DNA of 935 nucleotides. It comes from a phage. Below the pieces are notes generated by a model. The model was not told the DNA's origin, did not search any database, and worked only from the letters and a program-made list of their open reading frames with translations. Shown piece after piece: positions 1-935 of this stretch. Every line of letters starts with the position of its first letter. Position 1 is the first letter of the stretch. The translations under genes and the position numbers were made by a program. The stretch is from the sequence record AB841354.1. One strand, 5' to 3'.

Positions 1-752
1 TGACCGTAGTCGTAGCATCTGCCGGAATAGTTCGATTGAATTTGTTTTAGCGCCGGATACAGTTCGCGGAATAATGCCTGTGAGCGGTTGGCATAATCCC
101 ATAACCATACAAGGCTGTTTGCTTCTTTTGCAGAAAGCTCGTTTGCTTTCTTCTCTTGTTTGCCGATTAACTCGCCTTCAAGCACTACCCTGTGGATGTA
201 CTCTACGGCTTGCGGTATCTGAGATGCATCAAGCTCTTCAATACTTTCCACATTGAAACGCTGATGAATCATTGCATAAGCTTCTGGGTACATTAGATGC
301 TTTTTGCTGACTAGCATATTTACAGCATCACGAAGCGGAGTCCTGTCATCAACAGATGTTTTCTTACGTGCATTTCCTGCCTTTCCCTTTGTCCAGTAGT
401 CATGCAGTACAGTAAAGCATTCTTCCTGGTACTGAATCAGTTTATCGCGGATGTCAGCTCGAACTTTCTCAGGGTTGATGCTGAACAGCCATCCATTTAA
501 CTTCTTCAAAGGAAGGCAGAGTAGCTTACGAAGCTTCCCATCAGCGGCAACCATATTCATATGAATACAGTTGAACTTATCTAGTTGTTTCATAAGTTTT
601 TGTTGCTGAGTACCCCAACTCATTCCAAGGTTTTCAACGATTGGCTTCATCGCAACGTATGCAACTCCGGCAGCCATGGCGGTGATAATTTGCTGACCGT
701 TGAATGGTACGTAAGAGGTGTTCACTGCTTCTAAAATTGCTATACTATTCAT
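1..752 (-). CDS. Phage antirepressor-like protein (Ant-type), N-terminal 250 codons; 3' end of gene lies beyond the window start
   Basis: Seen in sequence: minus-strand frame is open from ATG (plus 752-750) through position 3 with no stop in 250 codons. The protein starts [105 protein letters not shown]... and is still open at ...[24 protein letters not shown] lies 10 nt upstream of the ATG, which is the first ATG after the in-frame stop at plus 831-833. Family assignment (P22 antirepressor N-terminal domain type, around the [18 protein letters not shown] segment) is from memory, not a search. Confidence is high for a real CDS, about 0.5 for the antirepressor function. Confidence 0.85.
738..746 (+). 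promoter_or_regulatory. Candidate extended -10 promoter (TGcTATACT) firing antisense to the antirepressor-like gene
   Basis: Seen in sequence: plus strand 738-746 is tgcTATACT, matching the extended -10 form TGnTATAAT at 5 of 6 hexamer positions plus the TG. There is no convincing -35 (gtgttc at 17-bp spacing), which extended -10 promoters can tolerate. Predicted start is near 753, immediately opposite the ant start codon. Sequence motif only; no expression evidence. Confidence 0.3.
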
Positions 753-762
753 GTTGGTTTTT

Positions 763-766
763 CTCC
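763..766 (-). promoter_or_regulatory. Shine-Dalgarno (GGAG) for the antirepressor-like CDS
   Basis: Seen in sequence: minus strand reads ccgtGGAGaaaaaccaacATG, with GGAG 10 nt upstream of the start codon at 752-750. The spacing is at the long end of the usual range. Confidence 0.55.
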
Positions 767-784
767 ACGGATTTACCGACAACC

Positions 785-825
785 GAAGCCCTGACTGTTC
801 CAGCAATTGGGGCTTCAACGTTTTT
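785..825 (+). terminator. Hairpin plus T-tract, candidate intrinsic terminator for a plus-strand antisense transcript
   Basis: Seen in sequence: gaagccc (785-791) and gggcttc (810-816) are perfect reverse complements, giving a 7-bp stem with 5 GC pairs and an 18-nt loop, followed by aacg then ttttt (821-825). It is non-canonical: the loop is large and a 4-nt spacer precedes the T-run. On the minus strand the same hairpin has no U-tract after it, so it is directional for the plus strand. Confidence 0.3.
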
Positions 826-935
826 CCACTTCATTTTGAATTTGCTTAAGTAGCATATTTGTCTCGTCAAGCCTCTTGTTAATACGGTCAAGGCTTTCTA
901 CTAAATCGTTATGTGCATGTAATACTTCGTAATTT
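815..935 (-). CDS. C-terminal 39 codons of a small upstream ORF, hypothetical protein; 5' end lies beyond the window end
   Basis: Seen in sequence: only one minus-strand frame is open from the window edge to a TGA stop (plus 817-815); the other two frames hit stops within about 10 codons. Translation is ...[38 protein letters not shown], helical and charged in character. It is co-oriented with the downstream gene and 62 bp from its start. No family recognised. A 39-codon open frame in AT-rich DNA has a non-trivial chance probability, hence the moderate confidence. Confidence 0.45.

Follow-up and report, generated by a model that had tools for sequence, protein, structure and literature searches.

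A small gene for a predicted membrane protein between arc and ant in P22-like prophages

Reading frame at the end of the window and neighboring genes

The window, by which we mean the whole stretch of 935 nt of phage DNA that was analyzed (AB841354.1), begins within a gene for a P22-type antirepressor. The first 250 codons of this gene, ant, are read on the minus strand from the ATG at 752..750 and occupy positions 1..752, the remainder being cut off by the window start. The DNA of ant is 84% identical to ant of P22 and 96% identical to ant of epsilon34, and in the closely related contigs L170-L176 its 300-aa product contains the Pfam domains P22_AR_N and P22_AR_C. Behind a spacer of 62 nt (753-814) a further minus-strand reading frame extends to the other end of the window (815..935). 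Six-frame translation gives 39 sense codons (934..818) followed by TGA (817..815), base 935 being the final base of the preceding Ser codon. The end of this ORF at 815, its C-terminus, the 62-bp gap and the co-orientation with ant are therefore exactly as described in the original prediction, which had been made from the letters of the window. In DNA of 34% GC, 39 codons without a stop next to a window edge are unremarkable when taken alone. We take the ORF to be real because of evidence from outside the window, namely the 89-aa protein encoded on contigs of 99.89% identity and the relatives found in the same slot.

Four contigs (L170, L171, L175 and L176) match the window from position 1 to 935 at 99.89% with one mismatch and contain the complete 89-aa gene. 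The sole mismatch is A806 in the stem of the sar RNA (see below), a base particular to the window, all relatives read having a G at this position. We consider these contigs to be the best guide to the DNA past position 935. The original prediction had left the full ORF to be sought beyond the window; in the closest relatives the frame runs on for 50 codons to an ATG and encodes 89 aa in total, and this ATG overlaps the stop codon of arc in an ATGA overlap (context GTATGA). The 89-aa sequence consists of MKVSLLDRSLQFLSGAIIVVCLLVIFTSLINMYQSGERLTKTIEEKKSVSNYEV followed by either Ser or Leu and by 34 further residues, the Leu variant (P0024) being that of the window. The 39-aa fragment of the window is identical to residues 51-89 of P0024/P0002; from WP_001555392.1, the 89-aa protein of E. 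coli APEC O2-211 and of phage EC.P3, it differs by one residue, Leu for Ser. The window holds the final 39 codons of a small accessory gene that belongs to a P22-like prophage of the Lederbergvirus type. In a megablast search of phages and complete E. coli genomes the window was not matched over its entire length, the similarity ending at about 823-836, and when positions 790-935 were searched alone 14 E. coli genomes and 2 phage records matched. A novel junction at about 823-836 was considered and was dropped after this second search and exact-protein look-ups of the relatives.

Ten nucleotides past position 935 the relatives carry a run of eight A residues (GAGGAAAAAAAATCAG). Alleles with seven A residues encode a product of 60 aa that ends at a TAG at window positions 903..901, so that the frame 934-818 is orphaned; the 60-aa product keeps the transmembrane helix and the juxtamembrane motif of the longer protein. 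Such A7 alleles were found in 7 independent samples and at least 3 backgrounds (P0005, P0007, P0008), and one A7 contig (L031) is as near to the window as the intact contigs are, with a single differing base, but over 773 nt only. Database entries also exist for products of the third reading frame (P0029, P0030), as would fit one more change in the length of the run, and in some alleles a synonymous change breaks the A run. These observations would fit a window frame that is the untranslated remnant of an A7 allele, with 818-934 out of frame, and the A7 runs in L031 and L030 had indeed suggested to us a frameshifted copy, a view that was reversed by the P0024 contigs with A8. A8 and an intact gene are present in all four of the independent contigs that agree with the window over its full 935 bases apart from one shared mismatch, intact P0024 occurs in 87 index blocks as compared with 2 contigs for P0005, and the CDS is intact in all complete E. 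coli genomes read. Since four contigs match over the full length with the gene intact, and since the intact sequence is by far the more abundant, we favor an intact gene: judged from its relatives the window copy is very probably intact, and a remnant is unlikely. A frame closed by a stop, or lacking a start codon, just beyond 935 had been named in the original prediction as counting against it; the closest relatives show neither, but the rare A7 alleles do orphan the frame. Nor is the ORF the end of a longer, well-characterized protein, which had been the other reservation, the gene of the closest relatives being short and uncharacterized.

Directly upstream of the ORF, and joined to it by the ATGA overlap, an Arc-family gene (Pfam PF03869) is present in 40 of 40 related loci read. 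These loci stem from Escherichia, Salmonella and Serratia and have the order arc, 89/83-aa gene, about 62 nt, ant; for the 20 loci that were parsed in detail the spacer is 62/63 nt. The same order is found in all 12 complete E. coli genomes read (12/12) and in phage EC.P3, and also with the 83-aa relatives in Serratia marcescens and two other samples, which are 40-48% identical and share the slot, the 4-nt overlap and a spacer of 62-63 nt. A divergent mnt gene lies beyond arc in the loci read, the order in the relatives being mnt / Pant-arc-ORF-(sar)-ant-tailspike, with the ORF as the second cistron after Pant in all loci read. A Pant-like site precedes arc (TTGACT-17-TATCTT in L176), and in L001 we find what we take to be the canonical P22 Pant with the arc and mnt operators. 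According to the original prediction the ORF is located in the position that Arc occupies in P22. This is not the case in the relatives: the Arc-family gene is upstream in all 40 loci, and therefore the ORF is an addition between arc and ant and no replacement of Arc. As to the proposed check whether the gene pair is conserved together, ORF and ant lie side by side in each of the 40 loci. The immI region of P22 (mnt / Pant-arc-sar-ant) is the same operon with the same neighbors, the same sar RNA and an ant gene of 84% identity; P22 and epsilon34, however, have nothing between arc and ant, whereas here the gene for the 89-aa membrane protein is inserted. A further difference concerns the C-terminus of Arc, which reads ..REG(I/V)x(V/I) where a cargo gene follows (..REGITV here) and ..KEGRIGA in the P22 type without cargo. 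We hold the identity of the gene and the logic of its operon with high confidence.

The spacer between the ORF and ant is not empty. The statement that it contains no convincing sigma-70 promoter agrees with our consensus scan of positions 600-935, in which no sigma-70-like promoter was found on either strand (shuffled sequences gave 0.5 +/- 0.7), but the gene for the antisense RNA sar had been overlooked. This gene is encoded on the plus strand at 753..820 and matches the Rfam model RF00262 over model positions 1-68 of 68 with 81.5 bits (gathering threshold 43, E 2.4e-17). It fills the whole spacer and overlaps the stop codon and the last codon of the ORF by 6 nt, and phage epsilon34 annotates sar at the equivalent place. 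The known target of sar is the ribosome-binding site of ant (PMC2629481). In the window the Shine–Dalgarno sequence of ant, which we read as GGAG on the minus strand at 763..766, lies inside the sar target, sar being complementary here. Stem–loop II of sar, the terminator hairpin, is located at 785..816 and in the relatives has a stem of 14 pairs, a loop of 4 nt and the tail AACGTTTTTC. This T-rich tail is found on the plus strand at 817..826, and the opposite strand reads Glu-Lys-Arg-stop in the frame of the ORF; the tail of the sar terminator dictates the last two codons and the stop codon of the ORF. In consensus scans of the relatives no promoter-like site was detected between the Pant-like site and the ATG of the ORF. 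A sense-strand terminator for the ORF was not found, the sole downstream terminator-like hairpin being that of sar on the opposite strand. Co-transcription with ant, which had been considered probable, is in line with the complete relatives, where both genes belong to one operon and the spacer is devoid of promoter-like sites. In A8 alleles the 89-aa gene itself contains the consensus match TTGACA-16-AAAAAT, which, if real, would complicate the single-operon picture.

Conservation of the gene and features of its predicted product

The gene is already catalogued as PHROG 27312 (E 6.5e-61, residues 1-89 of the 89-aa relative tested aligning to profile positions 1-89 of 89) but is uncharacterized. 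Automatic names such as YoxC or MtrG are given to it occasionally and go back only to a transmembrane-plus-coiled-coil resemblance. The family is narrow: it accounts for 8 clusters in a set of 5.8 billion proteins, one distant relative was retrieved when 1.84 billion representative proteins were searched exhaustively with phmmer, a profile search added two, and a scan of the GTDB species-representative genomes found no relative. Single intact variants are recorded on at least 1000, on 900 and on 204 contigs from E. coli and Salmonella, and for a gene this common in both hosts even a modest phenotype would apply widely. Of 14 IMG/VR matches we set one aside (L025), which lies by chance within a helicase-like ORF of 563 aa.

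Pairwise dN/dS values among the 89-aa alleles range from 0 to 0.54, on few substitutions. An alignment of six sequences has 27 invariant columns, located mostly in the transmembrane helix and the juxtamembrane motif: L13-S-G-A-I-I-V19 in the hydrophobic helix and S35, G36, R38, L39, I43 and E44 just after it. With 34-35% GC as compared with 44% for ant the composition of the gene is foreign relative to its neighbor. By the alignment and the dN/dS values the ORF is a real, conserved gene. The fragment alone, being short, AT-rich and at the window edge, would also be compatible with a chance ORF or a mis-annotation at a place where the RNA elements alone matter. Such a reading is already contradicted by the conservation data, since frame, length and architecture are kept down to 40% identity across three genera in the same slot, dN/dS is below 1 and the PHROG match is full-length, and we consider its probability to be negligible.

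The Kyte–Doolittle mean over 19 residues peaks at 2.81 for residues 12-30. From the N-terminus the protein comprises a short tail, a transmembrane helix at about 10-32 with 2 K/R residues in its N-terminal and 4 in its C-terminal flank, the juxtamembrane motif SGxRL..IE and a C-terminal amphipathic heptad helix at about 58-88; in residues 51-89, hydrophobic residues fill 8 of the 12 a/d positions of the heptads. Without an alignment as input, AlphaFold2 returns a single helix from residue 4 to 88 with a pLDDT of 86 and a dip in confidence at 41-60. Taken together these features predict a bitopic membrane protein whose tail is coiled-coil-like, and not a regulator of the ribbon-helix-helix or helix-turn-helix type. 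It had been noted from the visible C-terminus that the ORF does not resemble Arc, and the full-length relative confirms this with no match to the Pfam Arc family (PF03869) even at E<=1. The further suggestion of an analogous small regulator, for which a structure prediction had been proposed as a check, does not survive: the prediction yields one continuous helix and not a ribbon-helix-helix fold, a transmembrane helix is present, and Pfam and NCBIfam searches with the full-length relative gave no family above threshold and no DNA-binding match. In addition the gene accompanies at least 4 arc alleles and at least 5 N-terminal types of ant, which argues against a regulator that is specific for its partners.

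A function by homology was not obtained from Pfam, NCBIfam, PADLOC, PDB profiles, BFVD or a BLASTP comparison with SieA. The PADLOC models matched 0 families, the profile search of the PDB found nothing better than E 0.015 with a designed coiled coil at the top, Foldseek against BFVD had 0 matches, as expected for a single helix, and P22 SieA was not matched by BLASTP at E<=10. The same architecture, an N-terminal transmembrane helix followed by a coiled coil, is found in DUF948 (YoxC-like) and DUF1664. Their alignments with the 89-aa protein are weak (residues 16-84 and 31-87, 15.9 and 16.5 bits against gathering thresholds of 37.2 and 34.6), and we read them as architectural resemblance and not as membership. 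Assignments as a spanin, a lipoprotein or a protein with a signal peptide were rejected. For an Rz-type i-spanin there is a marginal match to PHROG 214 only (E 0.048), the gene is part of immI instead of a lysis cassette, and the loci contain no lipoprotein ORF, embedded or adjacent, as a candidate for the o-spanin partner. A lipoprotein or signal peptide was dismissed in view of the hydrophobic stretch of about 21 residues after a charged N-terminal segment and of Cys21, which has no lipobox; position 21 is Cys here and Phe or Ser in the relatives. A type I toxin–antitoxin system was considered as well. Type I toxins usually have fewer than 60 aa, and their antisense RNA is directed at the translation start of the toxin mRNA or at a long 3′ overlap; here the product has 89 aa and the overlap with sar amounts to 6 nt.

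The arc–ant slot

We surveyed the junction of arc and ant with the help of the sar hairpin. The hairpin sequence GAAGCCCCAACTGCnGnAACAGTCAGGGCTTCGG is present in at least 120 IMG/VR contigs among the matches listed, whatever gene precedes it. In 58 of these loci Arc is encoded directly before the hairpin, the P22 arrangement with an empty slot; 37 have a cargo gene that overlaps arc by ATGA, 14 a 57-aa ORF or remnants, and 11 are cut by the contig end. Thus 109 loci among the matches listed are informative and the slot is empty in 58 of them. The 37 cargo genes encode Cys-rich proteins of 67 aa (17 loci), 74 aa (2 loci) and 63 aa (1 locus), a 73-aa protein (PHROG 11805, 7 loci), the 89-aa protein (6 loci), an 80-aa protein (2 loci) and a 60-aa protein with a ClpX C4 zinc finger (Pfam E 7.6e-11, 2 loci, one of them damaged). 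At least 7 unrelated families of small genes, the 89-aa gene among them, therefore occupy the slot, and among the slot loci listed no cargo other than the 89-aa gene encodes a transmembrane helix.

The limits of the slot are well defined, on the left by the conserved 3′ end of arc (..DSLKREGxxV) and on the right by the sar terminator. The 3′ ends of all cargo genes read AAA-CGT/AGT/CAG-TGA or GAA-AGT-TGA and have one and the same distance from the hairpin, the last 8-10 nt common to all of them being AAA[AC][GA]TTGA. Because all types of cargo end alike at one hairpin offset, the last two codons and the stop codon of the ORF belong to the shared boundary. CUS-3 annotates a 'bsq2; boundary sequence' over the stretch that matches the hairpin at 785..816.

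This slot agrees with the 'ant moron' between genes 16 and 9 of P22-like phages, described as a region in rapid genetic flux in which unrelated genes without known function are found (Villafane et al. 2008, PMC2629481). No paper on the 89-aa gene or on the arc–ant slot was found when we searched with the accession, the PHROG number and the phrase 'between arc and ant'. That the ORF might be an unrelated moron gene had been offered as a second option in the original prediction, and this option is essentially right. The 89-aa gene is present or absent at one position in collinear phages, as expected of a moron; the classical definition also includes a promoter and a terminator of its own, and consensus scans of the 89-aa gene show neither. 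We regard the gene as ordinary swappable phage cargo in a known hypervariable region, and the current understanding of immI is not overturned. For annotation it follows that 'Arc-like regulator' would be the wrong label, Arc being located upstream. The slot with its interchangeable and precisely bounded small genes offers an easily cloned set of candidates for early-infection functions in a classic model phage. In our view this sharply bounded slot with its ClpX-finger-like alternatives is a more interesting by-product than the 89-aa gene itself.

One could go further and see in the arc–ant junction a dedicated site of cassette exchange that is loaded with alternative effectors for the first minutes of infection, although we think this improbable. 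The cargo would then comprise four ClpX-zinc-finger-like families, at least two other soluble proteins and the 89-aa membrane protein, delivered through the coupling to Arc as one self-limiting burst at infection. The 89-aa protein would be the membrane-targeted effector, its LSGAIIV face gripping an inner-membrane component of host or phage so as to bar further DNA entry or to disarm a membrane-bound defence, and the A8 run would allow occasional on/off or truncation switching.

Proposed expression and role

In P22 the promoter Pant is active at infection and is then shut off by Arc, Mnt maintains its repression in lysogens, and the immI region is also traversed by late transcripts (PMC2629481, PMC12111858). 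By analogy, the 89-aa protein would be translated from the Pant transcript in coupling with arc and would appear together with Arc and Ant in a short burst after DNA entry or on loss of Mnt repression, and perhaps once more on read-through of the late operon, the gene being silent in the established lysogen. It is because of this behavior of Pant, Arc and Mnt in P22 that we infer an early burst and no expression in lysogens. The protein probably inserts into the inner membrane. Its conserved helix face of small residues suggests specific packing in the membrane, and the protein probably self-associates through this invariant face or binds a membrane partner with it. The free assortment with arc and ant alleles suggests that the function is autonomous. 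Overall the best explanation, to which we assign a probability of about 60%, is a cargo gene for a membrane protein that is coupled to arc, expressed in the Pant burst and active at the inner membrane. More specifically the protein could act early at the membrane, either by keeping out the DNA of related phages while lysogeny is established or the lytic cycle proceeds, or by modulating the envelope or a defence system; this role is our best guess, but we put it forward tentatively and consider it rather doubtful.

We do not think that the 89-aa protein controls ant. A small regulator of Pant or ant that has replaced Arc might have been expected from P22 and epsilon34, where the stop codon of arc is found at the same place before the sar hairpin, and the visible fragment is a charged helix as it could occur in many regulators. 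With an Arc immediately upstream in every locus read, with a transmembrane helix and no match to a ribbon-helix-helix or helix-turn-helix protein, and with free assortment among various arc and ant alleles, this reading is already refuted in substance and highly improbable. A subtler involvement would be an adjustment of sar pairing or of Ant activity, either by translation as far as the base of the sar hairpin or by the protein as such; the immI switch would then be modulated in alternative ways by the various cargo genes. Every type of cargo stops at the identical offset from the hairpin and overlaps arc by ATGA, the stop codon and the last codon of the ORF lie inside sar, and several of the other cargos are ClpX-zinc-finger-like and could affect protein stability. 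The common stop is, however, explained more simply by the conserved terminator tail as a recombination boundary, and P22-type phages work without cargo, as the share of empty slots shows (58/109 informative loci among the matches listed). Moreover, purifying selection is strongest in the membrane helix, which a purely translational role does not require, and the gene assorts freely with ant alleles. We consider such a contribution to ant control unlikely.

About equally unlikely, in our estimate, is a protein for lysogenic conversion or superinfection exclusion of the SieA or HK97 gp15 kind, expressed in the lysogen from its own promoter. A small protein of the inner-membrane type encoded in the 'ant moron', where P22 keeps sieA (PMC2629481, PMC10883804), would suit this reading, and the 3 carrier prophages examined have a lipoprotein gene and not a P22-type sieA next to gene 16. 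It is opposed by the lack of a terminator of the gene's own and of a promoter-like site between the Pant-like site and the ATG, by the repression of P22 Pant by Mnt in lysogens (PMC2629481) and by the absence of similarity to SieA or to any PADLOC model. We therefore prefer the arc-coupled membrane-protein cargo over these alternatives.

As a small gene directly upstream of an antirepressor gene in an immunity operon under antisense-RNA control, the 89-aa gene has a parallel in icd of phage P1. The P1 gene is co-transcribed with ant in an operon of this kind and its product has an effect on the host cell and not on DNA; icd overlaps ant and is needed for ant translation, and the regulator is the C4 RNA. 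Here, in contrast, the 62-nt spacer targeted by sar separates the two genes, and the regulators are Arc, Mnt and sar. No sequence relationship is expected. The small ORF icd preceding ant1/ant2 in the immI region of P1 is said to have been described by Riedel, Heinrich and Schuster in the Journal of Bacteriology in 1993.

The predicted protein can also be likened to P22 SieA, HK97 gp15 and T4 Imm, which are phage-encoded proteins of the inner-membrane type. T4 Imm, a protein of similar size that is made immediately after infection, blocks further DNA entry, and its timing matches the expression window that we propose for the 89-aa protein. SieA, a protein with three transmembrane helices, is produced by the prophage (PMC10883804), whereas only one such helix is predicted here and there is no sequence similarity. 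A role in exclusion is not easily reconciled with the repression of the promoter in lysogens. The carrier prophages without a P22-type sieA give a weak hint at a substitution of SieA, many P22-like phages also lacking a P22-type sieA.

Left boundary and alternative cargo of the arc-ant slot

A comparison of the 3′ ends of arc (positions 2480-2504 in L176, a relative that covers the whole window and has an intact gene, versus 2470-2498 in L178, the P22 sequence) showed that the C-terminus of Arc depends on whether a cargo gene follows. With a cargo gene downstream Arc always ends in ..DSLKREG(I/V)x(V/I), whereas without one the C-terminus is ..SFKKEGRIGA. This places the cassette's left boundary within the last few codons of arc, where it alters the C-terminal tail of the protein.

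In other prophages the arc-ant slot is taken by genes for four small Cys-rich proteins that are unrelated to each other and have lengths of 60, 63, 67 and 74 aa (contigs L003, 3315-3539; L004, 3315-3497; L041/L048; and L053 from IMG/VR). A ClpX C4 zinc-finger domain is clear in one of them (E 7.6e-11), while a second gives a weak match. The finger proteins could be free-standing mimics of the ClpX N-domain which would be co-expressed with Arc and Ant, and they are possibly worth a separate study.

The A8 run and variant alleles of the gene

Natural isolates differ in the length of an A8 run within the membrane-protein gene, which is located 10 nt past the end of the window (2632-2639 in L176; 3133-3139 in L030). 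The A7 alleles yield the 60-aa products P0005, P0007 and P0008, and the third-frame products P0029 and P0030 were seen in Logan contigs only. In some alleles the run is broken by a synonymous change. The length variation may reflect a mutational hotspot, phase variation or, in part, assembly error.

The gene also contains on its sense strand a promoter-like match, TTGACA-16 nt-AAAAAT (10/12 consensus positions; 8115-8142 in the related contig L007, equivalent to a site just past window position 935), in which the A8 run itself forms the −10 element. The scan did not report this match in the A7 allele of L030. If the putative internal promoter is active, the run length would affect not only the protein but also a promoter directed into ant.

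Two rearranged variants occur in few contigs each: P0004 (94 aa) has an acidic segment at its N-terminus in place of the transmembrane helix, and in P0028 (112 aa) a late frameshift leads to read-through across sar in the direction of the start of ant.

A single base change in sar stem–loop II

Within stem–loop II of sar (785-816) the window has A806, where every related locus read has G. This is the sole difference from the relatives L170, L171, L175 and L176. The change turns the sar pair C795-G806 into a C-A mismatch, which Rfam marks as a non-standard pair, and on the ant mRNA strand the counterpart of this pair is a G-U wobble.

Mosaic ant and neighboring genes

The ant gene (1-752) is a mosaic. 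Window positions 1-182 and 386-935 are matched by L007 with no match in between, ant genes of the L001 type have a different N-terminal domain and share only window positions 1-209, and in L169 a 1-nt indel splits ant into two ORFs.

At the position of sieA in P22 the carrier prophages have a minus-strand gene for a 161-aa lipoprotein (MKKSLLIIPLLLAGC..), adjoining gene 16 (L007, 6685-7170; L172, 1185-1670; L176, 808-1293). Other carriers encode, on the side toward mnt, a YafO-family toxin, a PIN-domain protein or a P63C-domain protein.
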